A stretch of DNA of 64,000 nucleotides from a bacterium (GCA_963674595.2 CAXXFV010000013.1:21261-85260); one strand, 5' to 3'; shown: positions 608-64,000, numbered from the stretch's first letter. Numbers and translations: made by a program. The notes: generated from the sequence alone by a model not told the origin.

Positions 608-1093
608 CTTGTTCTGCAAGTTTTTTTTGATATGGATAGATTAATTTTTTATGAGTTGACTAATTTTAACACCTATTATCTTAAATAAACAGTCTATATA
701 AAAATATAAAACCTGGTTAAAATTTGTTTAGATTGTAAATGAAGTAAAAAATGTTTTATCGGAAGTGTCTTTACTATAAAAGTAAAAAAGTGTGTATTTA
801 TTAGAAAAGAAAAAATACCGGCCCTTTATCAATTTAATTGACAATTCTATAAGATCATTGCCGAAAACAGTTATTATAATATATTCAATTTATTTAATAA
901 ATAACAGCTAAAAGTGCAGTGTTTTTTTTGAGTTTAAGAAAAGGCCGAAAATCCCCTGCGAAACCAATGAAACCGGGATTATATCCCCAAGGTAATTGAT
1001 CGTCCAAGGATTCTACCCTTGCACGGAATAAAAAAAGGGCTTGGCCCTTCTATTGCAAACATTCCTTATTTATGTGCAATGGTGCGGTAAACC

Positions 1094-1768
1094 TCACCCA
1101 ACGACGTTGGGATTAAATCCCTTTACAAAAAGCCAGATGGGCAATAAAAACAGTTCAAATAAAGCGCCAGGTACATATAAAATACCTCCTGCCCCGGTTG
1201 TATTAATTATCCCAAGAATATCCAAAGGAGCACTCACTAATAACAATGCATATCCAATAAGGCCTGCCACCGAAATGAATCGTGGAATTAAACGTGTTTT
1301 GTAAAGTAAATAACACAGCATGATACTGGCAATACCCAGAATAATCATTGCTGTTTGATAACCACTATATCTGGCTTTTACAGCCAAATTTGCCAGGGTT
1401 TGAAAATAGGATACCTCCGGAGAGCCTGCCTTTATATATTCCTGACTCAGAACTAAAAGAAGAAAATAAACAATGACACCAATGATAAGGAGTAAACACT
1501 CCATCACTCTCGAGCATACATATGTAATGGCTATTATTTTATTGTGCTTTTCCAAAATCGGGTAAAACAAAATTGCAATTCCTGCAACCCCAAGGGACAT
1601 GAATAAAATTGAGAATGCTCCGATATAAAATTTAAATTCATTAACATAATAGCCGGCAAGTGGTCCGTGGAGAAGTGGCGCCACAGCATAAGCATCAATC
1701 ATCCCCAGAATCATCGTAATAATAAACAGAGCACCCACAGCTTTTGCCAGTTTGTTTTCTGTATCCAT
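1094..1768 (-). CDS. DUF4386-like integral membrane protein
   Basis: 224 aa, about 6 hydrophobic helices, LIPRFISVAGLIGY and FELFLLPIWLFVKGF motifs recalled as typical of this family. Confidence 0.7.
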   Translation of the reverse strand: MDTENKLAKAVGALFIITMILGMIDAYAVAPLLHGPLAGYYVNEFKFYIGAFSILFMSLGVAGIAILFYPILEKHNKIIAITYVCSRVMECLLLIIGVIVYFLLLVLSQEYIKAGSPEVSYFQTLANLAVKARYSGYQTAMIILGIASIMLCYLLYKTRLIPRFISVAGLIGYALLLVSAPLDILGIINTTGAGGILYVPGALFELFLLPIWLFVKGFNPNVVG

Positions 1769-2148
1769 ACTTTTCTCATTTTGTTAAAATTTAGCCTTTA
1801 TATATTTCCAAAGCCATATCTACAACGGCGGCATCCTGGCTTTTCCCTAAATATAGTTATTTTTTATACAAAATGGTTAAATATAAGAACTTTTTATTCG
1901 TCCAAAACGTTCACACACCATTTACCGCTCGCCGGGGATTTGCAATCCCATGCGGAACCAATAAAATCGGGATTTTTTCCTCCAATGCCAAAAAGCGCCC
2001 TCCCTTCAACTTCACTCAGGGTGACACGGTTTAAAATTATCCTTCCCCGTCATCCCGAGCGGAGTCGAGGGATGCTCAGAGCCCAGTCTCCTTTCCACCC
2101 TTCGACTACGCTCAGGGTGACGCCTGTTAAAAAAAACAATCTAAAACA

Positions 2149-2168
2149 TGTATACCATTTGGTATACA
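2149..2168. promoter_or_regulatory. Palindromic candidate enhancer-binding-protein site
   Basis: TGTATACCA-tt-TGGTATACA, about 120 bp upstream of a sigma54-type promoter. Confidence 0.45.
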
Positions 2169-2284
2169 AAATCGTGAAATTTTAAATTTTAAATTCTACT
2201 TTATTGAATATTCATTCAAAACGATTTCAGCCTATTTATAAAATTTACAACACATTACATAAAAAATCAGCAAAATCCCAAAAC

Positions 2285-2300
2285 TGGCACAAATCCTGCA
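2285..2300 (+). promoter_or_regulatory. Sigma54 -24/-12 promoter
   Basis: TGGCACAAATCCTGCA has GG-N10-GC spacing, 60 bp upstream of the REC-kinase/cheW/MCP operon. Confidence 0.65.
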
Positions 2301-2359
2301 TTAGTCCGGATATAAATACGCATCTGTAGAGGAATGAACAATATAGAGAAGGAAACAGA

Positions 2360-6389: not shown

Positions 6390-6402
6390 ATATATATTCC
6401 GT

Positions 6403-6479
6403 TTCTTTTGCAGATTTGGTTTTAATGTGTGTTATGTTTATGTATAATTAATATGAGGTAAATAACATCTGCAAAAGAA
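6403..6479 (+). terminator. Long inverted repeat after MCP gene, possible terminator or stability stem
   Basis: TTCTTTTGCAGAT (6403-6415) and ATCTGCAAAAGAA (6467-6479) are perfect 13-bp arms. Confidence 0.35.
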
Positions 6480-6643
6480 GCCTTTATAGCTGTAATACGC
6501 AAATGAATGGCTCTCAACACATTGTTGGAGCCATTTTTGATTTGCCCTTATGTCATCCCGAGCGGAGTCGAGGGATTCTCAGAGATACTCGCCCCGGAAA
6601 CATTCCCAAAACGAACAAAAGATTTTCAATTCAACGGCAGATT

Positions 6644-7660: not shown

Positions 7661-7802
7661 GTTCTCACCTCATCTTGAATAAAAATTATGTTATGGATCA
7701 ATTTGATCTTCAAGGGGTTCTCTACCCTTGTAAAGAATAACAAAAGGGTTTTGCCCTTCTATTCCAATCATTCCCTATGTATGGTTATAATGTGCATACG
7801 TT

Positions 7803-7826
7803 GTAGGGGCAATTCATGAATTGCCC
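7803..7826 (+). repeat. Repeat module M1: GTAG-type REP hairpin GTAGGGGCAATTCATGAATTGCCC
   Basis: Other copies at about 17813, 21041, 44207, 63829; degenerate at about 6525, 52997, 55121. Usually followed directly by module A. Confidence 0.85.
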
Positions 7827-7830
7827 TTCC

Positions 7831-7905
7831 TGTCATCCCGAGCGGAGTCGAGGGATGATTATCGACCTGTCTCCTGTCCACCCTTCGACTTCGCTCAGGG
7901 TGACA
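7831..7905 (+). repeat. Repeat module A: TGTCATCCCGAGCGGAGTCGAGGG...CCTTCGACTnCGCTCAGGGTGACA foldback
   Basis: Full copies at 2048-2122, 7831-7905, 7950-8023, 37511-37580; half copies at 6551, 14266, 17840, 21069, 53021, 55149, 63853. Confidence 0.9.
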
Positions 7906-8076
7906 CCCATCAACAACACGAGAGGTGACATGATTTAGTCCGTCTACACGTCATCCCGAGCAGAGTTAAGGGATGATTATAGACCTGTCTCCTGTCCACC
8001 CTTCGACTACGCTCAGGGTAACACCCATTTTAAATTCGTCTTCCCCTCATCCCAAACAAATTCAAGAGCGGCATAT

Positions 8077-8105
8077 AAAAAAAAGGGAACTCAGCGTTCC
8101 CTTTT
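8077..8105 (-). terminator. Rho-independent terminator
   Basis: AAAAGGGAAC-loop-GTTCCCTTTT stem with a U-run on the minus strand, 15 nt after the stop at 8121. Confidence 0.8.
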
Positions 8106-8120
8106 CACATCAATACTCTT

Positions 8121-11668: not shown

Positions 11669-11857
11669 GAACGATCTCCCTCGCAGCATTTTGTTTGGAA
11701 TTTAATAACACTGGTCAAGTCACAGTATGGACCCTTGATCCGTCATTTAATTGATATAAAAGTATATGGCGTTTGCAGAAATATCTTATTACCAGGTGCT
11801 GAACATAAACACAATATTCCACTTGAAACAATCAGGAATATGATGACAGCCAAACGT

Positions 11858-11976
11858 AATCACTTCCTTGTGTATGCTTTTGAAACCCGTACTTGTAAAA
11901 GGTGGTAAATCAGTCAGGGACCTCAAAAAATTAATGCTCGACCAGGTTGTATAAAAAACAGTCCCTTAAAACTGAC
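11858..11976 (-). ncRNA. Candidate structured leader RNA (motif G), copy 1, upstream of lnt
   Basis: GTCAGT...AGGGAC...TGGTCGAGCA...GTCCCT.ACTGATTTACC...AAGGAAGTGATT, directly after promoter TTGCAG-N17-TATTAT (12010-11982). Confidence 0.55.
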
Positions 11977-12171
11977 AGACAATAATACAAACTTTCTTAA
12001 ACTGCTGCAAGCTGTTTTTAAAAAATTTTTAGCCGGCAGTTGTAAATATTGCGCTTAGTGTGGGTGTTGGGTAATTTCCAGGTCAGCAAAATGTCCGGGC
12101 GATCAATTGATATATGCAGGGGTTAAAAATTTAAAATCCCCATGGTTTACTTTATTCAGAACACAGGCATC

Positions 12172-12199
12172 GTAGAGACGCACGGCCGTGCGTCTCTAC
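12172..12199. repeat. Repeat module N: GTAGAGACGCACGGCCGTGCGTCTCTAC palindrome
   Basis: Perfect 28-bp palindrome; degenerate copy at about 41971-41997. Both follow module M2 (GTAGGGGTTAAAAATTTTTAACCCCTAC type, best copy 18302-18329, also about 12116, 39414, 41915). Confidence 0.8.
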
Positions 12200-12368
12200 A
12201 ACTTTGCTTAAGGTCCGGGCCTTGATCGGAACCGAAACACAAATCAAAACACGTCATTCCTGCGAAACAGGAATCCAGAAATTTTACGGAACGTCTTTGT
12301 GACCTCTGCAGCTCTAAAACTAATTTTTTGCTCGCAATTGGAACACTCTAGGCGGGTAAAAAGTCAGT

Positions 12369-13625: not shown

Positions 13626-13724
13626 TTTACCTCCTTTTTAAATTGAAAAGATTTATCAGGATTATTTTAATTTATATATAATTTGCCGTTGCCATTATAT
13701 CCTGGTCATATAACAAAATCGGGT

Positions 13725-13844
13725 AATCTCTTCCTTACAAGTATTTTAAATCCCGATATTTTAAAAAAAGTGGTAAATCAGTCAAGGTTGTCAGGAGGCC
13801 CCGTGCGTGACCAAATTGTCCTGAAAATCGTCCTTTTGTCTGAT
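13725..13844 (-). ncRNA. Candidate structured leader RNA (motif G), copy 2
   Basis: ATCAG..AAGG..TCAGGA..TTTGGTCACGCACGGG..TCCTGA..CCTT..CTGATTTACC...AAGGAAGAGATT after promoter TTGCCT-N17-TATAAT (13879-13851). Confidence 0.6.
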
Positions 13845-13934
13845 AAAATAATTATACAAATTAAATAAAATCAAGGCAAGATATTTTTGAAAAATTTTGA
13901 AAATAATATTTACCCATCCTCAAATTCTTTATCT

Positions 13935-14010
13935 TCTCACAATGTTCACAAAGCTCACAAAGGATGATTTAAATTGTTATTTCTTTGTGTACCTTGTGTA
14001 CTTTGTGAGG
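13935..14010 (+). repeat. Repeat module C: CTCACAATGTTCACAAAGCTCACAAAG...CTTTGTG..CTTGTG..CTTTGTGAG foldback
   Basis: Copies at 13935, 26596, 37320, 42092, 44422, 48994, 54476, 57012, 58192, 60275, 62780, 63927, all in the same orientation. Built of ~9-nt CACAAAG units and their complements. Confidence 0.92.
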
Positions 14011-14611
14011 GTTTATATTAACCAGGACATTTGGCCCTGTTGAAAATGTAAAGTTACCTTTTTTGAATATTGTCGTTTAATCTCGATTTTGTAAAAAATT
14101 CAGGACAGACTAATTCTCCGCTCGCAGGGGACATACATTCCCCTGCGGAACCAATGAAACCGGGATTTTATCCCAAATGGAAACAAATTCTCCTGCTTGA
14201 AACCCGGGCCTTGAGCGGAGTCGAAAGGCCGCTCAGGGTAGCACCCGATTGAAACCCGTCTACACGTCATCCCGGGCGGTGTCGAGGGAACACTCAGCAG
14301 CTCTCCCCCACTCTGCATTTGCCTTTTGTTTAAAAATTACGTATCTTTTATTCAGATACTCGCCCCCTATTCATTCATGTTCATACCAGGTGTACACGTT
14401 CAATGCACCCGGTTGATATATGGATAAAAGTGTACAATAATTTAAATTTTTATTATTCCAGATCAAACAAAATGTTGATTGTCCCTCGCCAGGCGATCGT
14501 TTCATTGGTTAACGAATGTAAAAATAAGGATAAACATAATTTGCCGGTACTCATAACGACAAGAATTATCCTGATATCATTATCATGTTCGCTTATTCGA
14601 TGGAGGTGTTA

Positions 14612-17764: not shown

Positions 17765-17842
17765 GCTTTAAATCAAGCTGACACCCTTTGACAATAACAT
17801 ATGACGCTGTTGGTGGGGCAATTCATGAATTATCCTTACGTC

Positions 17843-17955
17843 ATCCCGAGCGGAGTCGAGGGATGTTCAGCGACATCTCGCCCCATGATCCCGAGTGTTA
17901 ACGAGGGATGTTCAGCGACATCTCGCCCCATGATCCCGAGTGTTAACGAGGGATG
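17843..17955 (+). repeat. 45-bp tandem repeat (about 2.5 copies) derived from module A
   Basis: ATCCCGAG...GAGGGATGTTCAGCGACATCTCGCCCCATG units start at 17843, 17888 and 17933. Confidence 0.9.
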
Positions 17956-18477
17956 CCTGCTCACAGAGGATTTGCAATCCCCTGCGCAACCAATGAAACC
18001 GGGATTTTATCCCCAATGCCAAAAATTCAATTTCTGCGAAAACCCGCCATCGTACATCTAAAACAAAAAAACCAAATGTCATGCTGGAAGCATCTTCCCG
18101 ACTTTTAATCTACTCTTAATTCCGGCAAGATTCTTCCGGAATGACAGAGTGAAAAATTCGTTAAACAAACCAGGGCATCTGCCCTGATCCATTCTCAAAA
18201 AACGGGACCATATTAATATTTACATTACAAAACCTCAAGTTAATTTGCGCCCTGGGAAATTTCAAGAATCAGCAGAATCATTGGACGATCAATTAATATG
18301 TGTAGGGGTTAAAAATTTTTAACCCCTACATGGTTTGACCGTCTTAAAATTTCACTTTGGTAAGTTCAATAAATTTGACATACCCCTTGTTCACCCTCTG
18401 AAAACGTTCCCGAATCAGACCCGGTCCGTGAGCGGAGCCGAAAGGCCGCTCCAGGTGACACCACACAACATCGCCCC

Positions 18478-20862: not shown

Positions 20863-21345
20863 AATGTTAGTCCCTTCTATAATTTTGATTGTTCCCATTG
20901 TCTGATAACAAAAGGTATTATCAAATTACAAAAGAAAACCTGCATTCCCAAGATAAAAAAGTGAATATGGAAAAAGTGTGCGTTTCTACCGCACTTTTTT
21001 CGCCCGTTCCGGTATTCATTTTACAGGGCGCTAAAAAGTTGTAAAAGCAATTCATGAATTGTCCTCTGGTCATCCCGGGCGGAGCCGAGGGATACCCATA
21101 AAAGCCAGGCCTTTTTTTCCATTCCTCGACCTCAAAGGCAGAATTTCGCCGAGGTTAAAAATTTCCCTCCGCGACCTCTGCGGCTCTGCGTTAAAACAAA
21201 CAAGCTCGCCCCGGAATTCCTTTTCCAGGGCGTTAAATAAAACAGGGCATTTTGCCCTGATTATTTCTAAAACATCGGAATAAACACCCCGCCTTATTTG
21301 CGCCTTGTGAAACATTCCCAAAGGAAGCAAAAAAAATATTTTTTT

Positions 21346-23026: not shown

Positions 23027-23195
23027 TTACCCCTCCATAAGTGATGATGACATTGCATTACGCATGAACAGTCATTGGATTTTTTCCCATGACATGACAA
23101 TTGCGAGATATAACAGAACTGAAATTTCTTGATAGATTTTTCACTGTCTGAAACATTCATATAATTTTAATTGTCTAGGTTAAAAATTATCAAAA

Positions 23196-23211
23196 AGCAA
23201 TTGATGTGCCA
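23196..23211 (-). promoter_or_regulatory. Sigma54 -24/-12 promoter
   Basis: TGGCACATCAATTGCT is a full consensus match; upstream inverted repeat CAGTTTTTTGA-N8-TCAAAAAACTG (23280-23309) is a candidate activator site. Confidence 0.75.
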
Positions 23212-23480
23212 TACCCTTAAATTATTGTAATTTATTGAATTAAATTATTTTAACAGGAAAGATTTATATTATTAGTTTACAGTTTTTTGAAAAAACCATC
23301 AAAAAACTGAGGTCGCTATCCTTAAAAACAGATATATTTCCGAAAAAAAATGTGATCGTCCAGGGGTTTCTTTGAACAGATTAACAAAAGGTCTTGGCCT
23401 TTTATATAAAACATTCATTATTTATGGTCATAACGTGTAAAAGCCAAGCCTTTACTTTATTACGTTTTTACTTCTTAATC

Positions 23481-23515
23481 ATGCAATGATGCGGTAGAAC
23501 CGCACCCTGCTGACT
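23481..23515 (+). repeat. Repeat module E: (TGCAAT)GGTGCGGTAGAACCGCACCCT(A/G)C, a GTAG-type REP on the minus strand
   Basis: Copies at about 1074, 23481, 38964, 45816, 49488, 50338, 52364, 52905, 53151, 54141. Confidence 0.85.
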
Positions 23516-23544
23516 TTTACAAACAACAAAACCTTTTATTTCTG

Positions 23545-24387: not shown

Positions 24388-24635
24388 TTTATTACCTCAC
24401 AGATCAGAACCGTCTCACGGTCCGTTCATTTTTAATTTTTTCGTCTATCCGGATACAGTGGTATCACACGGACTTGTAATCCGGGTAAAAACAGACGTAT
24501 CCTGTTCCGATCCAATCAACTGATGGACCAGCCCGTCTCTTATAATTTTAATCCGGGTTTTCTGAGAATCCCGGTGGTGGAATTGATGCAATTCCATCGT
24601 CAATTCATACACCAAATTCCCGCAAAACCGCTTGC

Positions 24636-24839
24636 CTAGTCTTTTAAAACAAACGTAACTTTCATCACAACACGATATTCCTTTATCTCGCCGTCCACAA
24701 CCTCCACATGTTGATCTTTAATCCAGGCTCCCTTGACATTATCAAGAGTTTTATTGGCCCTTTTGATTCCCCTTTTAATAGCATCGTCAAAACTTTCTTT
24801 GGAAGATGATATAATTTCAGTGACCTTTGCTACACTCAT
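24636..24839 (-). CDS. Dodecin family protein
   Basis: MSVAKVTEIISSSKESFDDAI...EYRVVMKVTFVL, 67 aa, AAGGAG RBS. Confidence 0.92.
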   Translation of the reverse strand: MSVAKVTEIISSSKESFDDAIKRGIKRANKTLDNVKGAWIKDQHVEVVDGEIKEYRVVMKVTFVLKD

Positions 24840-25094
24840 GGTTATCTCCTTTTAAATCAAAAATGATTGATTTGAATGATAATTACAACTTGACACCTGC
24901 ATAACATATCACAAGCAGGATAATATTTCCAAATTTATTATTTAGCCGCGATGTAACAATATTTAAATTGAATCAATAAAAATATAATGGTTATGCCACA
25001 CGTTCGCCTTTCAATTTATCTTTCAACGCTTGTTGATCGTACAAGGGTACGGAATAACAAAGGGGCTTTGCCCTTTTATGAAAAACATTCCTAC

Positions 25095-25156
25095 CCGCTC
25101 GCAGGGGATTTGCAATCCCCTGCGGAACCAATGAAACCGGGATTTTATCCCCAATG
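25095..25156 (+). repeat. Repeat module B: CCGCTCGCAGGGGATTTGCAATCCCCTGCGGAACCAATGAAACCGGGATTTTATCCCCAATG
   Basis: 11-bp perfect stem at 25100-25124 plus a conserved asymmetric tail. Full or partial copies at 950, 1925, 14118, 17957, 25095, 26771, 28637, 33738, 33846, 37205, 39325, 42005, 44309, 50273, 55178/56907 (split by IS), 58033, all in the same orientation. Confidence 0.95.
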
Positions 25157-25255
25157 GAAACCGCATTCCACAACTTTGAATTGCATATTATAAAATAAAT
25201 AGATATAATTTATTATTGTTTAGACAAAGACATCAATTACAATGCGGAGAAGACT

Positions 25256-28587: not shown

Positions 28588-28590
28588 ATC

Positions 28591-39232: not shown

Positions 39233-39325
39233 GTGATCGTCCAGGGGTTCTCTACCCCTGGACGCATTAACAAAAGGGCTTGGCCCTTTTATATAAAACA
39301 TTCTTTATTTATTGTTGTAATGTGC
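39233..39325 (+). repeat. Repeat module F: GATCGTCCAGGGGTTC..TACCCCTG...AACAAAAGGGCTTGGCCCTTTTATATAAAACATTC.TTATTTAT
   Basis: Copies at about 998, 7705, 23352, 25035, 26843, 39233, 42121, 44459, 60079, 62540. Confidence 0.85.
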
Positions 39326-39466
39326 CGCTCGCAGGAGATATACATTCCCCTGCGGAACCAATGAAATCAGGATTTCATCCCCAGCAAAACATCCGCACGA
39401 TCAATTGATATGTGCAGGGATTAAATTTTTAATCCCTGCATGGTTTGATCGTTATAATAAATCACT

Positions 39467-41567: not shown

Positions 41568-41730
41568 CTTTATTCGACCTGGTTATAATTTAACGGCGCC
41601 ATCCATTATATATTTTAAATGGTAATCATAGCGGTACTCCCGAACCGGCACCATATTAATATAAACAAACCACACCCCATCCAATAATAATGACCGTGAA
41701 ATAACAGGAATGTGATTTTGTGAGCAACGC

Positions 41731-41852
41731 AATCTCTTCCTCGTGTAAGTATTTGAATTTCGTATTTATATAAAGGTAGTAAATCAGCCGATAACTTGAA
41801 TAGTTCCCGTGCGCGACCAAATCGTCCTAAAAAGTCGTTCGTTATGACTGAC
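41731..41852 (-). ncRNA. Candidate structured leader RNA (motif G), copy 4
   Basis: GTCAGTC.ATAAC..TAGGACGATTTGGTCGCGCACGGG..CTA..GTTAT.GGCTGATTTAC...GAGGAAGAGATT after TTGCCT-N17-TATTAT (41887-41859). Confidence 0.6.
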
Positions 41853-42355
41853 AAGATAATAATACAAATTAAATAAAAACAAGGCAAGTGGTTTTTAAAA
41901 AAAGTTGAAAATAGTGCGGGGATTTAAAATTTTAAATCCTTACATGGATTACTTTACAGAACACTGACTTGATAGAGACGTACGGCCGTGCGTCTACAAC
42001 TATGCTGCGGAACCAATGAATTCGGGATTATATCCCCAATCCAAAAGTGATTCCCTTCGAGTCTGCCCAGGGTGACACGACTCGCCTTCATCTCTCATAA
42101 AGCTCACCAAGAAGCAGAACTGTGATCATCCAGGGGTTCCTGGCCCTTGTATATAAAACATACCTTATTTATAGTCGATGCTCGCCCCGCAACTCTTTTC
42201 CGGGGCGTTAAATAAACCAGGGCATCTGCCCGGCCCCGTTCTCAAATAACGGGCCCATATAAATCATTACACCTCGGTTTATCGGGGTAAATACCCCGCC
42301 TGATGTGCGCCTTGAGAAATTTCCAAGGCGTCCAAGTAAACAAAACAAAGCGTCA

Positions 42356-44095: not shown

Positions 44096-44254
44096 AATTC
44101 CTCCTATATTAATTGTAAAAAAATAGCAATTGGTATTTAAAAATCAATTTACTCGTTCTTTTTTTCACTCCAGGAATTTCATCTCCAAAGCATTAAATAT
44201 AAAGCTGTAAAGTCAATTCATGAATTGGCCTACGACCCACCCTTAGACACTGCT

Positions 44255-44306
44255 CCCGCTTCGACCCGGTCCTTGAGCGGAGCCGAAAGGCCGCTCAGGG
44301 TAACAC
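44255..44306 (+). repeat. Repeat module I: CCCGCTTCGACTCGGTCCTTGAGCGGAGCCGAAAGGCCGCTCAGGGTGACAC
   Basis: GAGCGG-AGCC-GAAA-GGCCGCTC hairpin; copies at about 14200, 18420, 28711, 33791, 44255, 48927, 53077, 54410, 58138, 60209, 62670, 63860. Confidence 0.88.
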
Positions 44307-44661
44307 TCCCGCTCGCAGGGGATTTGCAATCCCCTGTGGAACCAATGAAATTGGGATTATATCCCCAATCCAAAAGTGATTCCCTTCGAGTCTGCTCAGG
44401 GTGAAACGGCTCGTCTTAACCTCTCACAATGTTCACAAAGCTCACAAAGAAGCAGAAATGTGATCGTCCAGGGGTTCATAGCCTTTCTCTATAAATCATT
44501 CCTTATTTATATCCGATGCTCGCCCCGGAACTCTTTTCCGGGGCGTTAAATAAACCAGGGCATCTTGCCCGGATCAATTCTCAAATAACGGGCCCATATA
44601 AATCATTACACCTCGGTTTATCGGGGTAAATACCCCGCCTGATGTGCGCCCTGGGAAAACG

Positions 44662-44744
44662 GTAGGTTGGGTTCATCTTTTTGAACCCAACATTTTCATC
44701 AGGGTTTTGTTAATTGGCGGGTCCGTGATCCGGACCCGCGCTAC
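44662..44744 (+). repeat. REPIN-like doublet L+K (GTAGGTTGGGTTC..GAACCCAAC...GGCGGGTCCGTGATCCGGACCCGCGCTAC)
   Basis: Degenerate copies at about 37588-37621, 61122-61200 and 61876-61908; overlaps the stop of 44710..45777. Confidence 0.75.
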
Positions 44745-45777: not shown

Positions 45778-45848
45778 TATATTTCCTGTTTAGGAACCTC
45801 TGTGCGATCATAACCTGCAATGGTGCGGTAGAACCGCAACCTACAGAC

Positions 45849-45955
45849 TGATCCGTTCTCAAATAACGGGCCCATATTAATCATTAAACCTTAAACTTAT
45901 CGGGATAGATACCTCGCTTGATTTACGCCTTGGGAAACATTCCCAAGGCGAGCAG
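45849..45955 (+). repeat. Repeat module D: (TAAAACAGGGCATCTTGCCCTG)ATCCGTTCTCAAATAACGGGCCCAT...TATCGGGGTAAATACCCCGCC...CGCCTTGGGAAACATTCCCA(A/T)GGCG
   Basis: Copies at about 18162, 21232, 26896, 42208, 44545, 45849, 54566, 57092, 58264, 59240, 62878; fragments at about 6590, 14019, 26671, 39095, 49083, 50369, 60356, 61855. Confidence 0.92.
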
Positions 45956-45963
45956 AAACAAAT

Positions 45964-46560: not shown

Positions 46561-46642
46561 TTTTACTCCTTGTAAAATAAATACAAAAAATATTTCAGAA
46601 TGTAATATATATGTCTTCATAACCTTTTAGAAAGATTTATAA

Positions 46643-46773
46643 GTTGTAGGCCGGATTTTCTTGTTGAACCCGGCAATAGAAATAACCGGAAGGAAAATAT
46701 TTATACAAGTATTACAAAATTAATAAAAATAAGTATCAAATAAATGATGGGCCAAAATGGCCCATCCTACACC
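46643..46773 (-). repeat. REPIN-like doublet, inverted copy of 37353-37478
   Basis: Reverse complement aligns across both hairpins and the AT-rich core. Confidence 0.85.
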
Positions 46774-46793
46774 ATTTCAAATTGAAAATTAAT

Positions 46794-48560: not shown

Positions 48561-48694
48561 CCTGGAATCTCCATCCTTATTTTGCTGAGTAACAATATAT
48601 TATTGTACAACTCTATCAACTAAACATACTACACTTCACCACACCCAAAATATCTAACCGTAAACCAACAGGAATATGACTCTCTAACCGACTC

Positions 48695-48819
48695 AATCTC
48701 TTCCTCGTAAGTACTAAAACTTCCCATATATAAATTTAAAATGAGGTAAATCAGTTTAAGGTTTTCAGGCTCTCCCATGCGCGACCAAATCGTCCTGAAA
48801 AATCGTCCTTTTGTCTGAT
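48695..48819 (-). ncRNA. Candidate structured leader RNA (motif G), copy 5
   Basis: ATCAG..AAGG..TTCAGG.ACGATTTGGTCGCGCATGGG..CCTGAA..CCTT..CTGATTTACC...GAGGAAGAGATT after TTGCAC-N17-TAACAT (48854-48826). Confidence 0.6.
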
Positions 48820-49134
48820 AAAAGAATGTTACAAATTTTGTGTTATTAGTGCAAGCGGTTTTTAAATATGTTTAAAATAAGTGTAGGGGTAGAATATCCT
48901 TTAGGGTAAATAACCTGCCTTCTGCTCCCGCTTCAAGTCCGGTCCTTGAGCGGAGATGAAAGGCCGCTCAGCGTGACACATGCTCACCTTACCCTCTCAC
49001 AATGTTCACAAAGCTCACAAAGGTTGATTAAAATTGTTATTTCTCTGTGTGCCTTGTGTGCTTTGTGTGCTTTGTGAGGGTTTGAATAAAACAGGGCAGG
49101 ATATTCATCGTATCGTACGGTTAATTTAAAAAAA

Positions 49135-49401
49135 TCAAGTGTCTTTCATTGGATTTTCATGAGGATAACAGCAAAGAACATTATCCATGTATTCAATTCC
49201 ACAAAAATATTTACAGATTGATATATTTTTTACAGCACATTTATGAGTATCTGTTTTTTCATATTTATTCCACGGACAAACATCTTGCTCCCAGGATATA
49301 TCAGCTTTATTGGAACAAATATCTATGTCCATATTTGCACCATCAAGTTTTTTTATTTCAATACCTTTTTTTTCATTTAATAATTTTAAATACCTTTCCA
49401 T
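49135..49401 (-). CDS. Small Cys-rich hypothetical protein
   Basis: CPWN...CAVKNISICKYFCG...LCCYP; same strand as its neighbours. Confidence 0.6.
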   Translation of the reverse strand: MERYLKLLNEKKGIEIKKLDGANMDIDICSNKADISWEQDVCPWNKYEKTDTHKCAVKNISICKYFCGIEYMDNVLCCYPHENPMKDT

Positions 49402-49540
49402 GTTAAATATACATTATGTTTGGTGATTCTCTTAGTTGCAGGTGCAGTTTTGCGGCACCGTTTAGATAATTTTTTATTAATCCTCATACAATGCTACAGC
49501 AGAACCTCATCCTACTGACTAGAAAATAGAATTCTCACGA

Positions 49541-52938: not shown

Positions 52939-52967
52939 ATAGTACAAATTTAGTCAATCCCCTGCAA
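52939..52967 (-). promoter_or_regulatory. Repeated sigma70-type promoter module
   Basis: TTGCAG-N17-TACTAT with the same upstream flank as the motif G promoters. Confidence 0.6.
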
Positions 52968-53194
52968 GCGGTTTTTGAAAAATGTTGAAAACAAGTATAG
53001 GGACATAAATTGCCCTTTCCGTCATCCCGAGCGGAGTCGAAAGGCCGTTCAGAGTGACATCCGTTCGACGACGCTCCCTCTTCGACTCGGTCCTTGAGCG
53101 GAGCCGAAAGGTCGTTCAGGGTGACACCTGCCGGCGATAAACATCCGGAAAATGGTGCGGTAGAACCACACCCTGCTGACTGTAATCCGGATTT

Positions 53195-54041: not shown

Positions 54042-54177
54042 AATTAAACCTCCGTTTATCCGGGGCTTCACCCCAATTGTGTAGTTTTGCCTTTGGCTCC
54101 GGTCAACTCGACACGAAACCACCGGAGATTAACATCCGGGAAATGGTGCGGTAGGACCACACCCTGCCGGCTGATTC

Positions 54178-54302
54178 AATCTCTTCCTCGTAAGTACTAA
54201 AACTTCCCATATATAAATTTAAAATGAGGTAAATCAGTTTAAGGTTTTCAGGCTCTCCCATGCGCGACCAAATCGTCCTGAAAAATCGTTCATTTGTCTG
54301 AT
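54178..54302 (-). ncRNA. Candidate structured leader RNA (motif G), copy 6
   Basis: Near-identical to copy 5; promoter TTGCAC-N17-TATCAT (54337-54309). Confidence 0.6.
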
Positions 54303-54704
54303 TAAATAATGATACAAACTTTGTGTTATTAGTGCAAGTAGTTTTTAATTATGTTTAAAATAAGTGTAGGGGTAGAATATCCTTTAGGGTAAATAACCTG
54401 CCTTCTGCTCCCGCTTCAAGTCCGGGCCTTGAGCGGAGATGAAAGGCCGCGCAAGGTGACACCGCTCGGTTTCGACTCTCACAATGTTCTCAAAGCTCAC
54501 AAAGTATGATTTAAATTGTTATTCCCTTGTGCACGGAGTGTGCCTTGTGCGCTTTGTGAGGACTTGAATAAACCAGGCCATCTTGCCCTGATCCGTTCTC
54601 AAATAACAGGCCCATATGAATTATTAAACCCTTGCTTTATCGGGGTAAACACCCCGCCTAATTTACACCCTGGGAAAGGTTTTCAGGGCGAACAATGCAA
54701 CTGC

Positions 54705-55046: not shown

Positions 55047-55182
55047 AAATTATAATTTTCGTTCCTCTCTGGAATTCCACTCCAATACGTTAATTAAAAA
55101 TTTGTAAGGGTACATATCCTGTAGGGACACTTTATAAATTGCCCTTATGTCATCCCGAGTGATTACAAGGAATGTTCTGCTC

Positions 55183-56906
55183 GGGGCTGTATCAAAAGTT
55201 CTTTATAATAAGATAAAAAATAAGTATAATTTTAAAAAAAGGAAAGTAATACGAGTAGGAGCGGATGAAAAAGTTTAGAGAAGTCCATCAGAACCAAATA
55301 ATGTTATTGCCACCGAGCCTGGATGAATTTATAGACAAAAACCATCTGGTCCGGGTATTGGATTCTGTAATAGATCGAATTTCTTCAAAATCCATAGAAG
55401 ATCGTTTTAGCGGAGGCGGCACACCGTCCTATCATCCGCGAATGATGCTCAAAGTTATTTTATATGCTTATATTTGCCATATTTATAGTTGTCGTAAAAT
55501 CGCCAAAGCACTGCGTGAAGATTTACCCTTTATGTGGCTTTCCGGTATGAGCCGTCCTGATTTTAATACAGTAAATCGTTTTCGCAGTGAGTACTTTCGC
55601 AACACGATGGAAGATATTTTTAGCCAGGTATTGCTGTTTTTAGAAGCAGAAGGCTATATTGATTTAAAAGATTATTTTGTTGATGGCAGTAAATTTGAGG
55701 CAAACGCAGGTAAATACACCTACGTGTGGAGAAAAAATACCGAACGTTATAAAGCCGCTGTAAAGCAACGGGTCCAATCCCTATTTCACGAGATTGATGA
55801 GCTTAATGCTGAAGAGGACTTGAAATATGGGGAAAGCGATCTACCGGAGCGGGGAGAGCATTCGGACATCACGGCTGAGAACATTGAAAAGGTTGCAGAA
55901 GAAATCAACGAACGACTGGAAAAAGAAGGGAATAAGAAAAAGGCCCGCTCTTTAAAAAGCCGGGCCAACAAGCTGAAGAAGGAATCGGAAAAATTGGCCA
56001 AATATGAGGACCAGGAAAATAAACTTGCCGGCCGCAACTCTTATTCCAAAACAGACACCGACTCAACCTTTATGCGAATGAAAGATGAAACGCTTCGGCC
56101 TGCCTATAATGTGCAAATCAGTACCAACCACCAATTTCTTGTCAATTATTCTGTTGGTCAAAATGCATCGGACTCAGCCAGCTTTCCAGCCCATCTTTTC
56201 AAGATCGTCAAGCGGAATGAAAAATTTATTCCAGAGACCTATACCGGAGACTGTGGCTATGGCAATCATGAAAACTATTTACTTTTGTCTGAATATAAAA
56301 TAGAAAACTTTTTGAAATATGGTTCGTTCCATCGAGAACAAAGCCGTAGTTTTCGTCAAAATATCTTTCATCGAGATAATATGAGATATGATAAGCAGCA
56401 GGATTGCTTCTATTGTCCGGCAGACAGAGCGCTCTGGTTCCGGGATATAAGGACCAGGAAAACAGCAACAGGGTTCCTCAATCAACAACGTGTTTATGAA
56501 TGTGAAGATTGTGGCGGTTGTTCACATGCCGAAAAATGTAAAAGAGGTGCTGGCCATCGAACAGTGCAGATAAATCGTGAATTGGAAAAATTCAAGGCAA
56601 AAGCCCGCGAGAATTTGAATTCTGAAAAAGGTATAAAACTCCGTAAAAAAAGAGGCAATGAAGTTGAAACCCCATTTGCTGATTTCAAGAAAAACCAAAA
56701 ATTCAGTAAATTTAGTTTAAGGGGAATTGAAAAAGTAAACCATGAATTTGGGTTGCTATGCTTGGCATTTAATATCCGAAAATACTATAAAAAATCAGGA
56801 AATTAAAAAAATATAAAGCCCGCTTCTCTTAAAGCAGGCTTCATTTCTAAATAATACTAAAATTACTTTATTGAATTGCAGTTTTTTGGGCTTTTGATAC
56901 AGCCCC
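55183..56906 (+). mobile_element. IS1182-family insertion sequence, about 1.72 kb
   Basis: Perfect terminal inverted repeats GGGGCTGTATCAAAAG (55183-55198) and CTTTTGATACAGCCCC (56891-56906) around a single transposase; no target duplication seen. Confidence 0.93.
55265..56806 (+). CDS. IS1182-family DDE transposase
   Basis: YHPRMMLKVILYAY...SCRKI...WLSGMSRPDF.T..RFR, VDGSKFEANA, SKTDTDS, GDCGY, YCP..CxxC..C, VETPFA. Confidence 0.95.
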   Translation: MKKFREVHQNQIMLLPPSLDEFIDKNHLVRVLDSVIDRISSKSIEDRFSGGGTPSYHPRMMLKVILYAYICHIYSCRKIAKALREDLPFMWLSGMSRPDFNTVNRFRSEYFRNTMEDIFSQVLLFLEAEGYIDLKDYFVDGSKFEANAGKYTYVWRKNTERYKAAVKQRVQSLFHEIDELNAEEDLKYGESDLPERGEHSDITAENIEKVAEEINERLEKEGNKKKARSLKSRANKLKKESEKLAKYEDQENKLAGRNSYSKTDTDSTFMRMKDETLRPAYNVQISTNHQFLVNYSVGQNASDSASFPAHLFKIVKRNEKFIPETYTGDCGYGNHENYLLLSEYKIENFLKYGSFHREQSRSFRQNIFHRDNMRYDKQQDCFYCPADRALWFRDIRTRKTATGFLNQQRVYECEDCGGCSHAEKCKRGAGHRTVQINRELEKFKAKARENLNSEKGIKLRKKRGNEVETPFADFKKNQKFSKFSLRGIEKVNHEFGLLCLAFNIRKYYKKSGN

Positions 56907-57253
56907 GGAACCAATGAATTCGGGATTTTATCCCCAAATCCAAAAGTGCCTCCCTTCGACTACGCTCAGGGTGACACCGCCAACAGCAAAGGGTGAAAAG
57001 CCTGCCTTCATCTCTCACAATGTTCACAAAGCTCACAAAGATTGATTTGAATTGTTATTACTTTGTGTGCTTTGTGCGCTTTGTGAGGGCGTTAAATAAA
57101 ACAGGGCATCTTGCCCTGATCCGTTCTCAAATAACGGACCCATATGAATCATTAAACCCTTGCTTTATCGGGGTAAACACCCCTCCTAATTTGCGCCTTG
57201 GGAAACATTCCCATGGCGAGTAGAAGGCTAATTATATTAAAATGATAGCCATA

Positions 57254-57952: not shown

Positions 57953-58433
57953 AATAATCTTTCGTTTTATTTTAAATAATATTTACAGGTATAACGGGGA
58001 ACTCAGCTGACCTGGGCAAACATTCAATATCTCTGCTCGCAGGGGATTTGCAATCCCCTGTGGAACCAATAAATTCGGGATTTTATCCCCAAATCCAAAA
58101 GTGCCTCCCTTCGACTCAGTCCTTGAGCAGAATCCGGGCGGTCCTTGAGCGGAGCCGAAAGGCCGCCCAAGGTGACACCGCTCGGTTTCGACTCTCACAA
58201 TGTTCACAAAGCTCACAAAGATTGATTTGAATTGTTATTCCCTTGTGCGCTTTGTGAGGGCTTGAATAAACCAGGGCATCTTTCCCTGATCCGTTCTCAA
58301 ATAACAGGCCTATATTAATCATTAAACCGTTGGTTTATCGGGGTAAATACCCCGCCTGATTTGCACCTTGGGAAACATTCCCATGGCGAGCAGTAAAAAC
58401 AAAAAATTTTTTTAATTTCATTTTTTAGTTCCT

Positions 58434-59087: not shown

Positions 59088-59374
59088 ACTCCTTTAAGTT
59101 AAAGATAATTATTCAAAACCAATTTAGGGCGGCACACCGCTAAATATACCATCAAAAAGAAATATGTTAACACATTGTTTAATTATAAATAAATCGATGA
59201 ATTTTCTTTGTAACACAAACTTATCGATTATAAAAGTCATTAAATAAAACAGGGCATCTTTCCCTGATCCGTTCTCAAATAACGGACCCATATGAATCAT
59301 TAAACCCTTGCTTTATCGGGGTAAACACCCCTCCTAATTTGCGCCTTGGGAAACATTCCCATGGCGAGCAGTGA

Positions 59375-60055: not shown

Positions 60056-60503
60056 AACATTAAAATCAAGATGGTACTTGATCGCCCAATGGTTTATAGC
60101 CCTTCTTTATCAAACATTCCTTATTTACAGCCATTATATGTAAAGGCCAAGCCTTTACTTTGTTACGTCAAGAGGCAGGAACCTCTTGCCGATCATATCG
60201 ATTACCCTCCCGCTTCGACTCGGTCCTTGAGCGGAGCCGAAAGGCCGCCCAGCGTGACACATGCTCACCTTACCCTCTCACAATGTTCACAAAGCTCACA
60301 AAGGATGATTAAAATTGTTATTTCTTTGTGTACCTTGTGTACTTTGTGAGGGCTTGAATAAAACAGGACATGTGCCCCGCTCTGTTCATTATTGTCCGAA
60401 TCACGAACCCATACTATCGCGCAAATTAAATAATGCTGAGGAAAAGGATCCCCAGGCATTGGACGTTCTGCAAGTTAATCGTTAATACTGTTTATACACA
60501 AAA

Positions 60504-61100: not shown

Positions 61101-61199
61101 TTTTAAAATCTCCCAATACCCTGGTTGCAGATCAGATTAATCTTTTGAACCCAGCATGTTCACCAGGATTGTGTTGATGGGTGTGGCCGTATCACGGAC

Positions 61200-61769
61200 C
61201 TAAGCGATCCATAACATTAATGATTTTGCAATTTTCCATCCGCTGCTGTCTTTTTTAAGCATGATAAGCTGGCCGGCTGCACTTAAAGGGGCTGAAAAAT
61301 CTGTAAAATAAACCAGTCCCTGATCCCTCAGGATATTAAAACCAACCTGTGAAAAATGAATCAGCGCATAAGCATTTGGATGTAATTCTTTCCATTGGTT
61401 TGCATTTTCTTCATCAATTAAATAACATGTAACTTCCAGGTTTGGTATACCCATTAATTCAATTTTATTTTGATTTTTGGCAAGATAATCTTGTATAGTA
61501 CTATTCTGCAAATCAGGAAAATGTTCTTTGATATAATCAATTTCATCTGAAATATCATAGAATAACGTAGAATCACCTAAAACAAACACAGGATTAGCAC
61601 TATCTTTGTGTAAATTTAAAGCGGCGGTGTAAACAAAATAATCCAGAGTATTGCCGGTCTCTTTGGTTTCTATAATTCCGGTAATATCGTCCTTATCCCG
61701 TTCGCAATTAAACAACATTGTTAAACTGACGATCAATAATAATGTTAACAAAAATAATCGTTTTAACAT
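61200..61769 (-). CDS. Hypothetical lipoprotein
   Basis: MLFNC lipobox-like; FSQVGFN...GLVY...MLKK...WKI C-terminal motif; start at 61769 by RBS. Confidence 0.7.
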   Translation of the reverse strand: MLKRLFLLTLLLIVSLTMLFNCERDKDDITGIIETKETGNTLDYFVYTAALNLHKDSANPVFVLGDSTLFYDISDEIDYIKEHFPDLQNSTIQDYLAKNQNKIELMGIPNLEVTCYLIDEENANQWKELHPNAYALIHFSQVGFNILRDQGLVYFTDFSAPLSAAGQLIMLKKDSSGWKIAKSLMLWIA

Positions 61770-61913
61770 GACTGTTCCCTCCATTATCTATGATATAAAA
61801 TAATTTTAACAGATTTCTATATCCACAACACAAACCGCCGGGTGTGCAGCATATTTCGGGGTAAATACCCCGGTGAATTGGCGGGGCCGGATTATGGACC
61901 TAGCCTGCTAATT

Positions 61914-62510
61914 TCATTTTTTATCAACCCAATAACACTTGTATTTTGTAAATGTACTATTCTCTTTTTTAAAATGAAATTCAAATTTCCATTCTCCGCG
62001 TTTCCCATCAATAAAACTGTTAAAACCATACGGATAATCAACAAATCCGTCTTTTTGGATCAGTTGATGAAATAAAAACCTGGATTTGTATAAAGAAGGA
62101 TGTATGACAATGATTGAATCCAGCATAATTTCATCATATAAAAAATGGCTCTGAAAATGCAAGGCAACGCTGTCAACATCATAATAATGAATTCGATATC
62201 CCATAAGAATTTTCGAGCTGATCAAGGTAATATCAAGTTCTTTAGTTTGATTTTTACCCAGAACAACGTTAACAAGCGTGTCTTCATAACTTGCATGAAA
62301 TAGTTTAATATCATAATTACCATCAGGCATATTCTCAATTACAAATGGTGTTTTTTTATCAATATATTTGTTATTTAAAATAATACCTGCTCCTTCAGGA
62401 GTCGACGTTATTGAAATTTTGCCTTGATTTTCATTTTCACTGTCTGCCGGATTTTTAGAACAGGAAAAACAAATAAACATGACAAGCAAACAGACAACAT
62501 TTTTTTTCAT
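61914..62510 (-). CDS. PEGA-domain lipoprotein
   Basis: CFSC lipobox; GKISITSTPEGAGIILN...KTP...GNYDIKL. Confidence 0.85.
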   Translation of the reverse strand: MKKNVVCLLVMFICFSCSKNPADSENENQGKISITSTPEGAGIILNNKYIDKKTPFVIENMPDGNYDIKLFHASYEDTLVNVVLGKNQTKELDITLISSKILMGYRIHYYDVDSVALHFQSHFLYDEIMLDSIIVIHPSLYKSRFLFHQLIQKDGFVDYPYGFNSFIDGKRGEWKFEFHFKKENSTFTKYKCYWVDKK

Positions 62511-63010
62511 ACTGGCCCCATAATTTTAGTTATTTTTGGTCTTCCAGGGATTTCTACCCCCCGGACGAATTAACGAAAGTGCCTGGCCCTCCTATATAAA
62601 ACATTTCTTATTTATGGTTGTAATGTATAAAAACGTTTCTACGCCCACTCTTCAACTCCGCTTGGCGTCCGCTTCAAGTCCGGTCCTTGAGCAAAACCCG
62701 GGCGGTCCTTGAGCGGAGTCGAAAGGCCGCTCAGGGTGACACCCGCCAACAGCGAAGGGTGACACCCGCTCGCCTTACCCTCTCACAATGTTCACAAAGC
62801 TCACAAAGGATGATTTAAATTGTTATTTCCTTGTGCACGGAGTGTGCTTTGTGTGCCTTGTGAGCTTTGTGAGGGTTTGAATAAGCCAGGGCATCTTGCC
62901 CTGATCCGTTCTCAAATAACAGGCGCATATTAATAATTAAACCTCGGTTTATCGGGTTAGGTTCCCCGCCTGATTCGCGCGTTGGGAAACATTTTCAGGG
63001 GCGTGAATAA

Positions 63011-63715
63011 TTAAAAAGTTCGTTTACATGCAGCAGTACAATCAAGTCCCTCTGGACATTTTTCATACTCCCAAATAACATCAAATAAACGCGTTAGGGC
63101 GTTATACATATCATCATTTGTACCATATTTAAAAATCCGACTTTCTAACCCATCTTTATTTGTTTCATACGGTGTAAAATATGCAACTCGTTCAGTTATT
63201 ACAATCCTACCAATATGCGGTGTGTTAAAACATTTTATTTTGATTTTTTTGGATGTATCATGATTTATAATAGAATTTTGCGTCTCTAAAATGTCGTTTT
63301 TTAAATTACCTCTATATGCTTTACTGGCAGTTTCTAATTCAGATTGCCTGTGGGCAGTCCAATCAGTTTCATCTGAAGTAAAGATTGTTCTAGGCAATAG
63401 AATACGAATTGAGTCTTTGTTCTTGCTGTTTTCATAAATTTCTTGAAATTTGGGACCTTTTCTCAAGTCTAATCCTCTTCCGGTTAGTATAGCAATATTT
63501 TTTGCTTTTTTTAATTCTATTTGCAAGTCTTCTACAACATCTTCCGAATTTTTAAATATATTTTTTATCTCAATGCCAAGGACTTTTCCTAAAATGTTAG
63601 AAACTATTTTTTTTCCTGATTTTTTTACAAACAAATCTGAAATAGCCTTTATAATAAAATATGCAATTAAGGAAGCTAATATTCCCATGATGAGTGCCAT
63701 CTGCCATTTTTCCAT
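63011..63715 (-). CDS. N-terminal TM plus PLD-like (DUF5919-type) domain protein
   Basis: TM helix, then IAILTGRG, IRILL, RIVIT...YFTPY, FDVIWE pattern; no HKD motif. Confidence 0.5.
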   Translation of the reverse strand: MEKWQMALIMGILASLIAYFIIKAISDLFVKKSGKKIVSNILGKVLGIEIKNIFKNSEDVVEDLQIELKKAKNIAILTGRGLDLRKGPKFQEIYENSKNKDSIRILLPRTIFTSDETDWTAHRQSELETASKAYRGNLKNDILETQNSIINHDTSKKIKIKCFNTPHIGRIVITERVAYFTPYETNKDGLESRIFKYGTNDDMYNALTRLFDVIWEYEKCPEGLDCTAACKRTF

Positions 63716-64000
63716 TTTCACTCCAAATTTATTATAGTATTTTTATTTTAATTTTTAAAAATTTACATGAATAGGTTAAGGCTAATCCTAAAATTACTTT
63801 TCCAAGGCGTTAAATAAAAAGTTGAATTGGCAATTCATGAATTGCCCTTCCTGTCATCCCGAGCGGAGTCGAAAGGCCGCTCAGGGTGCCACCACCAACA
63901 GCGAAGGGCAAAAGGCTCGCCTTCATCTCTCACAATGTTCACAAAGCTCACAAAGGATGATTAAAATTGTTATTTCTTTGTGTGCCTTGTGAGCTTTGTG

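Follow-up and report, generated by a model that had tools for sequence, protein, structure and literature searches.

What is the intergenic DNA of this locus made of, what moves it and why does it face one way? The locus is a 64,000-nt stretch of a bacterial genome assembly (G000 C13:21261-85260; hereafter the window, meaning that whole stretch), of which about one quarter (15,771/64,000 bases) is non-coding, in spacers that are often 400–980 bp long. An earlier note had described these spacers as a polarised mosaic of about 10 hairpin modules. With moderate confidence, we interpret them as a community of at least 12 short hairpin repeat families, in which families F, B and D/K-D are probably the gene-less partners of three repetitive extragenic palindrome (REP)-associated tyrosine transposases (RAYTs) and would be mobilised strand-specifically. 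The assembly comprises 6.6 Mb in 37 contigs (97.6 % complete, 5.06 % contamination) and is probably a metagenome-assembled genome; contig C13, which includes the window, is 85 kb long. Spacer limits and coding/non-coding base counts rest on gene calls made with a crude longest-ORF (open reading frame) caller.

Hairpin families and their probable partner transposases

Twelve module families were defined by nhmmer profiles built from seeds in the window (B, 25088-25160; F, 39235-39312; S, 7866-7910; G, 7802-7862; C, 44244-44310; K, 13935-14050; D, 44540-44660; I, 39390-39452; N, 12160-12210; P, 13770-13912; T, 49433-49520; L, 46641-46775) and searched against the whole genome. Counted as non-overlapping loci at E<=0.01, there are 43 loci for B, 66 for F, 39 for S, 29 for G, 44 for C, 37 for K, 39 for D, 14 for I, 8 for N, 34 for T, 11 for L and 139 for P. 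At least one module was present in 28 of the 29 window spacers of ≥150 bp, and the modules covered 6,204 of the 15,771 non-coding bases, with merely 324 module bases inside called ORFs; a repeat search returned at least 60 direct-repeat families in the window. The mosaic described earlier is real, with twelve families in place of about 10, and in its four example spacers the profiles recovered the modules in the order given. K, I, N and L are palindromic and F is partly so, and strand is uninformative for these families. Rfam 15 at gathering thresholds gave no match in the whole window, Rfam with E-value thresholds on 41500-45000 and 48500-48950 gave chance-level matches only, and a 13-mer repeat density map was dominated by AT-rich chance words and was uninformative. 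The B linker pattern had no match in the species representatives searched, and neither B nor P had a BLAST match in the 40 relatives searched.

The genome returned eight matches to Y1_Tnp, and the five weaker-scoring ones were scored against NCBIfam NF047646 (REP-associated tyrosine transposase, equivalog; cut-off 80 bits) and the IS200 model (cut-off 55 bits). Four exceeded the NF047646 cut-off (C29:40576-41121, 102.2 bits; C26:88026-88496, 96.2 bits; C29:188857-189408, 108.8 bits; C23:97828-98376, 85.5 bits), the fifth (C16:568563-569117, 62.4 bits) fell under it, and all five scored 17–28 bits for IS200, far under that cut-off. The first three, linked to F, B and D, respectively, are paralogous proteins of 156–183 aa with visible HUH and tyrosine motifs; tblastn found one copy of each, and none is on C13. 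The sole PDB match was the E. coli TnpA-REP structure 4ER8, a weak hit (E 0.0034) in which HLHLV of the query stands opposite HMHCI and YIHNNPVRKG opposite YIYINPVKHG. There were 355 homologues at E<=1e-10, the named ones being called RayT, REP-associated transposase or transposase.

The RAYT gene at C29:40576-41121 (− strand) lies between a + and a − copy of F, and three aligned F stems carry compensated changes (CCAGGGG/CCCCTGG, CCAAGGG/CCTTGG and CTGGAGG/CCTCCGG). The gene at C26:88026-88496 (− strand) lies between a + copy and a full-length − copy of B, the left B copy being cut by an insertion sequence (IS). At C29:188857-189408 (+ strand), the reverse complement of the 3′ part of D stands on the left of the gene and that of the 5′ part on the right; D therefore consists of both ends of this RAYT element, minus its gene. 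K is best understood as a long hairpin standing in for the first hairpin of D, because the same GCTCGCC...GGCGTTAAAT frame encloses both. When eight families (B, F, S, G, C, D, T and P) were searched for pairs, a RAYT gene between inverted copies turned up for B and F only. The F and B genes lie within module-rich stretches and the D gene, at C29:189 kb, amid sparse modules. F–F adjacencies number 11, the terminal hairpins of D are inverted and G–S inverted pairs are present; B, C and H (a further hairpin, below) occur as one-way singles, not inverted pairs.

B, F and D have a common architecture, a G(C/A)TCG foot followed by a hairpin and CG (starts CCGCTCG, GATCG and GCTCG, respectively), in place of the GTAG tag of proteobacterial REPs. 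GTAG...CTAC ends are limited to the minor modules N, I and L and to the GTAGGGGCAAT hairpin preceding G, where GTAG lies within the stem; this corrects the earlier note, as the RAYT-linked modules are not GTAG-capped. The wider proposal of the earlier note, that the modules are REPs acted on by RAYTs, was supported for F, B and D, with their cognate RAYT flanks, and was not supported for G, S, C and H; RAYT genes flanked by modules were found elsewhere in the genome for these three families, and no GIY-YIG gene adjoined a module. The sequence establishes that the RAYT genes are present, belong to this family and have REPtron-like flanks, and by the tests run we classify this as a REP/RAYT system of several families accompanied by a second, NTS-like hairpin class.

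Other Y1 genes were also associated with hairpins. The fourth RAYT gene, within C23:97164-98805, is flanked by its own inverted hairpins (GTGTGGCACGCGCC...), and farther out P is contained in two direct copies of about 200 bp, as would result from duplication of the RAYT unit together with a P region or from its insertion into one. Upstream of further Y1 genes (C16, C8 and others) are GTAGGGGCA...TGCCC hairpins resembling the small GTAG hairpin that precedes G. Among relatives, the most complete ones have RAYTs; in one of them (G015), one RAYT has 57-nt inverted flanks, and the repeat family concerned has only about 20 copies, clustered and facing both ways, which is not enough for a test against the origin and terminus of replication (ori/ter).

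The likeness to the REP/BIME/REPIN and RAYT systems (BIME, bacterial interspersed mosaic element; REPIN, REP doublet) of Enterobacteria, Pseudomonas and Stenotrophomonas (PMC3333891, PMC3116915, PMC6006769) lies in the short intergenic hairpin repeats, the single-copy Y1/HUH transposase of each family flanked by its own repeats (the REPtron), and the several families per genome, with clusters, higher-order arrays and new copies beside old ones. The present system differs in that its RAYT-linked families have G(C/A)TCG feet rather than an unpaired GTAG tag; in that B is a single asymmetric unit, comprising a conserved linker plus a second hairpin, instead of alternating REP/iREP pairs; in that nearly all copies of many families in a region face one way; in its low copy number (about 30–65 per family); in its confinement to about one-tenth of the assembly; and in the admixture of hairpins of a second class. 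Genomes with several REP families, each with its own RAYT, and BIME mosaics are already in print (PMC6006769, PMC3116915, PMC2817692), as are REPtrons, clusters and tandem arrays that switch orientation between replichores (PMC6006769, PMC3116915). In these respects the earlier view that the arrangement is more complex than BIMEs and REPINs is overstated. No paper on such repeats in KSB1, the group to which the genome reportedly belongs, came up in literature searches that were not aimed at that phylum. With IS200/IS605 elements such as IS608 and ISDra2, the modules share a related Y1 transposase and subterminal hairpins (PMC3333891, PMC3971601), and D shares the layout of left end, gene and right end, with gene-less derivatives; here, however, the transposases are single-copy and score as RAYTs, and what has multiplied is the derivatives that lack the gene.

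G, S, C and H resemble a different class. S (CACCCT-TCGACTnCGCTC-AGGGTGAC) and G (GTCATCCC-GAGCGGAGTCGA-GGGATG) are one hairpin type on opposite strands, with a 5-bp stem that differs between them and a conserved 12-nt loop that is kept; inverted G...S pairs are frequent, and C is a hybrid of the two. The 23-nt S core, CCTTCGACTnCGCTCAGGGTGAC, was found at more than 122 loci in species of at least ten phyla (Bacteroidota, Clostridia, Zixibacteria, Calditrichota, Ignavibacteria, Chloroflexota, candidate phyla radiation (CPR), Gemmatimonadota, Planctomycetota, Spirochaetota and others) with flanks that are not conserved, and G-like hairpins with the same 12-nt loop are often close to it. H (GTCATTCCTGCGmAAGCAGGAATC) has 20 copies in the genome, all on one strand and 15 of them within C29:60-103 kb, with a short array at 123–195 bp spacing at C29:60.4-61.2 kb (60400-61185); by eye, its main difference from the printed Neisseria NTS consensus (PMC11893778) is one compensated stem pair.

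The resemblance is to the CGTC-tagged REP/dRS3-NTS repeats (PMC3733652, PMC11893778): G and S start with (C)GTCA and have a stem beginning A-T and T-A, and these hairpins cluster, are oriented and occur across many phyla. The CGTC-tagged/NTS class was reported without a transposase (Di Nocera 2013, PMC3733652) and has been linked to GIY-YIG Ssn single-strand nucleases (Chenal 2025, PMC11893778). The modules depart from this class in the 5-bp stem and 12-nt loop of G and S, and the published SRM pattern misses them, giving 16 matches in the 6.6-Mb genome and 0 in C13, none being modules. GIY-YIG searches gave four matches in the genome, with a single small gene (C15:237482-237703) that has no such repeat adjoining and none in the H-densest stretch, C29:58-74 kb; no GIY-YIG, DUF559 or RAYT gene was found adjoining G, S, C or H. 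As the SRM pattern, the small GIY-YIG gene and the H-rich stretch were all negative, membership of G, S, C and H in the CGTC/NTS class is not established. The Neisseria intergenic mosaic elements (NIMEs) are grouped with the dRS3-NTS repeats.

Orientation and distribution of the modules

On C13, 82 of 83 asymmetric copies are on the + strand (B 20+/0−, C 19/0, D 16/0, S 7/0, G 13/1, T 7/0). The asymmetric linker GGAACCAATGAAACCGGGATT, with up to three mismatches, has 14 matches in the window, all +, and 0 in 100 shuffles. Within the window, this one-way orientation holds in convergent, divergent and ++ spacers, bearing out the earlier observation that the linkers keep one direction over 64 kb whichever way the genes point.

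Across the genome, 343 of the 364 non-P loci (94 %) are on contigs C13, C29, C26 and C18, which make up 9.5 % of the genome (the four module-rich contigs), and on C29 and C26 they occupy only some sections of the contig. Along C29, orientation changes in blocks: + up to 13 kb, − from 19 to 33 kb, + from 40 to 45 kb, − from 49 to 112 kb and + from 116 to 125 kb. In the four contigs, 162 of 191 copies have a strand sign contrary to that of the 20-kb GC skew, and 164 of 191 run against the strand of most genes; far from being random genome-wide, orientation flips in blocks with GC skew. The third-codon GC skew of the C13 + strand is −0.170 for + genes and −0.071 for − genes and, being negative for genes of both strands, fits a replication-linked asymmetry with the − strand leading. 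Since the RAYT gene inside D is antisense to D as written, the window D copies carry the RAYT-sense strand on the presumed leading (G-rich, gene-rich) strand. The orientation of D relative to GC skew is the same as the bias reported for the IS200 family (PMC3971601), in which IS200, IS200/IS605 and IS607 elements tend to point with the fork, a bias explained for IS200-type elements by single-strand transposition at the lagging-strand template (PMC3971601, PMC3333891). IS608 and ISDra2 are described as moving by single-strand ‘peel and paste’ at that template, with replichore-linked orientation (PMC3333891, PMC3971601).

By analogy with IS608 and ISDra2, and with E. coli TnpA-REP in vitro, the RAYTs would cut and rejoin one hairpin strand as single-stranded DNA (ssDNA) at replication forks. 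New copies would insert beside or within older ones, mostly nearby, and the result would be mosaics that face one way relative to fork movement and do not leave a restricted part of the genome. Composites duplicated as a whole over short distances probably add to the pattern, and G, S, C and H are a second class, which resembles the CGTC-tagged/NTS repeats.

Orientation could instead reflect a role in transcripts, the modules being mRNA 3′ stabilisers, terminators or RNA signals kept sense or antisense to genes by selection and not oriented by an insertion mechanism. REPs are reported to be mostly downstream of genes and to act on mRNA (PMC3733652), and of 126 modules between tandem genes, 109 run antisense to the genes on either side. 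Yet the regional skew is followed by 56 of the 62 modules that lie between convergent or divergent genes, the ++ spacer at 26501-27170 retains the + orientation, terminator-like sites are not enriched in 37-55 kb (15 against 13.0 expected) and no Rfam family matched, and we consider a transcript role quite unlikely.

The confinement of the modules to four contigs has a technical alternative, namely that these contigs come from a related organism whose whole genome is repeat-filled. An assembly of 37 contigs with 5.06 % contamination, in which 94 % of the non-P copies fall in four contigs, invites this explanation. Against it, modules are limited to parts of C29 and C26, the same IS is present at 98–99 % identity on module-rich (C13, C26 and C29) and module-poor (C3 and C19) contigs, P is found on 20 contigs, and in tetranucleotide composition the four contigs fall within the cloud formed by the remaining ones. 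We think such a binning artefact unlikely, although it keeps some weight; it would alter just the claim of a confined domain, not the identity of the repeats.

Assembly of the mosaics

The four module-rich contigs contain 199 module clusters, of which 106 are single-module sites and 93 are multi-module, and the latter comprise 84 distinct module strings, so the spacers are not deletion products of one IS or miniature inverted-repeat transposable element, an origin that the earlier note had set against its own proposal. Module order is not strict (B precedes C 11 times and C precedes B nine times), P tends to be first, and asymmetric non-P modules occur in both orientations within merely two clusters. 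Of 1,757 non-coding high-scoring segment pairs (HSPs) among the four contigs, 1,160 cover exactly one module, while 122 span two whole modules, 22 span three, 11 span four and three span five or more. Some pairs 2–4 kb apart are nearly identical (for example, C29:116202-116630 and 118308-118741, 96.8 %; C29:68159-68554 and 72183-72580, 96.5 %), and 48690-49098 of the window is 90 % identical to 54173-54580, a composite copied as a unit. With HSPs mostly of one module and some of several, the alignments point to spread of single modules together with local copying of whole composites, in line with the proposal that composite units spread together.

Could segmental duplication on a local scale, together with gene conversion and recombination among spacers, be the main source of the mosaics, with orientation inherited and the RAYTs as bystanders? 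The 36 HSPs that span at least three whole modules and the 90–97 % identical pairs are what such a process would leave. The predominance of one-module HSPs, the diversity of strings and the 106 single-module sites are at odds with it, as are the unrelated genes between the spacers and the match of each of three families to the flanks of its own RAYT. Local duplication probably contributes but leaves single-module spread unexplained, and as the main process we consider it improbable.

An integron-like cassette array with the modules as attC-type sites would likewise produce a single orientation and would account for the run of small same-strand genes at 44-64 kb, and an integron integrase (TIGR02249) is indeed encoded on C3. 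That contig, however, carries few modules (one B locus, two K loci and 11 P), no conserved RYYYAAC/GTTRRRY boxes were found at module ends by eye, the spacers are 200–980 bp long with up to six modules rather than one 60–140 nt site, and modules also lie between large housekeeping-type genes. An integron origin is thus very improbable. Reading K-D as attC was tried as well and rejected, GTTAAR-like boxes being present by eye in merely two of about 10 copies.

Insertion-like module edges, which favour the RAYT-based reading, occur in two places: an 88 % identical paralogue of the chemotaxis operon on C8 begins its homology directly after the last S of the 1769-2359 spacer, and an 80 % identical paralogous gene on C6 lacks the D copies that are present on either side of its window counterpart (in 57953-58433 and 59088-59374). 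Homology is lost exactly at the module edges in both. An IS occurs in five copies that are 98–99 % identical (window 55177-56920; C26:86162-87888; C3:219031-220777; C19:43243-44967; C29:1363-3086) and occupies the same position of B on C13 and C26, in place of hairpin 1; its flanks on C3 look like a decayed B. This suggests that the IS targets the B hairpin, which fits published targeting of REPs by IS elements (PMC1525189). Hairpin cells of B are 80.8 % paired, against 33–53 % in slid controls. Compensatory change in B is not in excess, as both partners had changed in only two pairs, a number that does not exceed that in shuffles; being paired without excess covariation, the B copies look young rather than structurally selected.

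This lack of covariation is one of several points that weigh against our interpretation, together with the antisense position of modules in tandem gene contexts and the possibility that regional restriction is an artefact of four contigs from a co-binned relative. Replication and transcription are separable at only eight modules in about three spacers, which split five to three, and at 30-96 kb of C26, + modules coincide with a weakly positive third-position skew. The direction of replication is inferred from GC skew and gene-strand bias only, in 37 contigs with no ori/ter located. B, F and D lack an unpaired GTAG 5′ of the hairpin foot, and for C, S, G, H, T, I, N and L the analysis revealed no partner enzyme. 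No transposition event was observed, and a clean empty/filled site was not readable, as contigs from four public runs (two studies) break at modules, the joints listed in them being cross-mappings between repeat copies.

Window features, the P element and biological meaning

The spacers of the window are listed in Table 1. The genes between them are ordinary chromosomal or accessory ones: chemotaxis, type IX secretion cargo, phosphoketolase, PAS kinases, a TIR effector, ankyrin and RHS fragments and one IS; the same-strand series at 44-64 kb includes the TIR effector and the RHS fragment.

Table 1. Spacers and other intergenic features of the window, with module order and module strand
Position	Modules or feature	Strand	Remarks
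620..1093	B-F-T	+	
1769..2359	B-S-G-S	+	divergent genes
6390..6643	G	+	convergent genes
7661..8120	F-G-S-G-S	+	G and S as inverted pairs of one hairpin type
11690..12368	L-P-I-N-C	+	one NTS-like H hairpin near 12250 (about 12250-12280)
13626..14584	P-K-B-C-G	+	divergent genes
17765..18477	G-B-D-I-C	+	convergent genes
20899..21345	G-D	+	
23027..23544	F-T	+	
24388..25255	F-B	+	divergent genes; contains the B seed
26501..27170	S-K-B-D	+	flanked by two + genes, modules nevertheless +
28588..28781	B-C	+	convergent genes
33291..34039	P-B-C-B	+	
36824..37621	P-B-K-L-G	+	
38836..39466	T-P-D-F-B-I	+	contains the F seed
41568..42355	P-I-N-B-K-D	+	first example of the earlier note
44096..44709	C-B-S-K-D	+	contains the D seed
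45778..45963	T-D	+	
46621..46793	L	no strand	occupied by long GTAG...CTAC palindrome
48561..49540	P-C-K-T	+	
52958..53194	P-G-C-T	+	
54123..54704	T-P-C-K-D	+	
55177..56920	IS element	+	DDE_Tnp_1_6/DUF772 transposase gene 55265-56806, replacing B hairpin 1
56807..57253	(IS end)-B-S-K-D	+	
57953..58433	B-C-C-K-D	+	
59088..59374	D	+	
60056..60503	F(−)-C-K	+	
62511..63010	F-C-K-D	+	another example of the earlier note
63722..64000	G-K	+	contig terminates within K

The 4.3-kb chemotaxis operon at 2130-6388 (response-regulator kinase, CheW and methyl-accepting chemotaxis protein) has its paralogue at C8:150007-154260, and upstream of both operons there is, by eye, a TGGCAC-N5-TGC box of the sigma-54-promoter type. 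Tandem repeats lie within two genes for secreted multi-domain proteins, of 303 bp at 16240-17145 (a Fib_succ_major protein) and of 507 bp at 34419-35732 (a PKD/InlB-repeat cargo protein of the type IX secretion system).

P is a gene-oriented upstream element by its position, and we class it apart from the REPs. It is a repeat of 130–290 nt with 133–139 copies on 20 contigs, and its copies in the window are on the − strand (about 11903-12030, 13771-13912, 33566, 37044-37170, 38997-39081, 41654-41944, 48630-48897, 52935 and 54177-54371). In the copies examined (window, C3 and C23), P lies directly upstream of a gene and on the strand of that gene, and its orientation is uniform within most contigs. 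The consensus has TTGCGC-17-TATTAT-like boxes (by eye) and a hairpin of about 75 nt with the conserved top GGTCGnGCAyGGGAG, followed by TTTACCAC and about 100 further conserved bases. P had no Rfam match and was not among the 60 sites listed by a promoter scan; RNAalifold gave no consensus on P alignments, and single P sequences fold alike. It could be a lineage-specific mobile promoter/leader cassette or a small RNA-like unit. The integron integrase gene (C3:115823-116767, within C3:115820-116812; TIGR02249, 453.7 bits) also has a P copy directly upstream, and 4 kb from it is a 74-nt tandem array at C3:108.3-111.9 kb, shorter copies of which lie at 99.3-100.1 and 101.4-102.4 kb.

The modules account for 39 % of the non-coding DNA of the window, for spurious ORFs called over repeats and for contig breaks. 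The co-occurrence of NTS-like and cross-phylum GTCA hairpins with REP-type modules suggests that ssDNA elements of different kinds share insertion niches. More tentatively, and with considerable doubt, a domain of about 0.3–0.6 Mb in a genome of the Fibrobacterota–Chlorobiota–Bacteroidota (FCB) group may be undergoing colonisation by hairpin elements of two unrelated classes of ssDNA enzyme (RAYT-type B, F and D; NTS/Ssn-like H, G and S), fork-strand-specifically and by adjacent insertion; its spacers would then record fork direction and a cis-preferring spread from the RAYT loci, and P would be a lineage-specific mobile upstream cassette, made up of promoter-like boxes and a 75-nt leader hairpin, before more than 130 genes. 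If this two-class colonisation is true, it would provide direct evidence, from a genome, that REPs are mobilised according to the lagging-strand rule of IS200/IS605 elements, which symmetric REPIN doublets hide.

Work on REPs and RAYTs has mostly been done in Proteobacteria, where symmetric doublets conceal strand preference. The asymmetric units described here make orientation readable, and it is almost absolute and follows strand composition. Should a closed genome confirm this polarity, it would support the view that mobilisation by RAYTs in vivo is strand-specific and coupled to replication, and would provide three natural enzyme–substrate pairs with different hairpins, useful for the study of how RAYTs choose their substrates.

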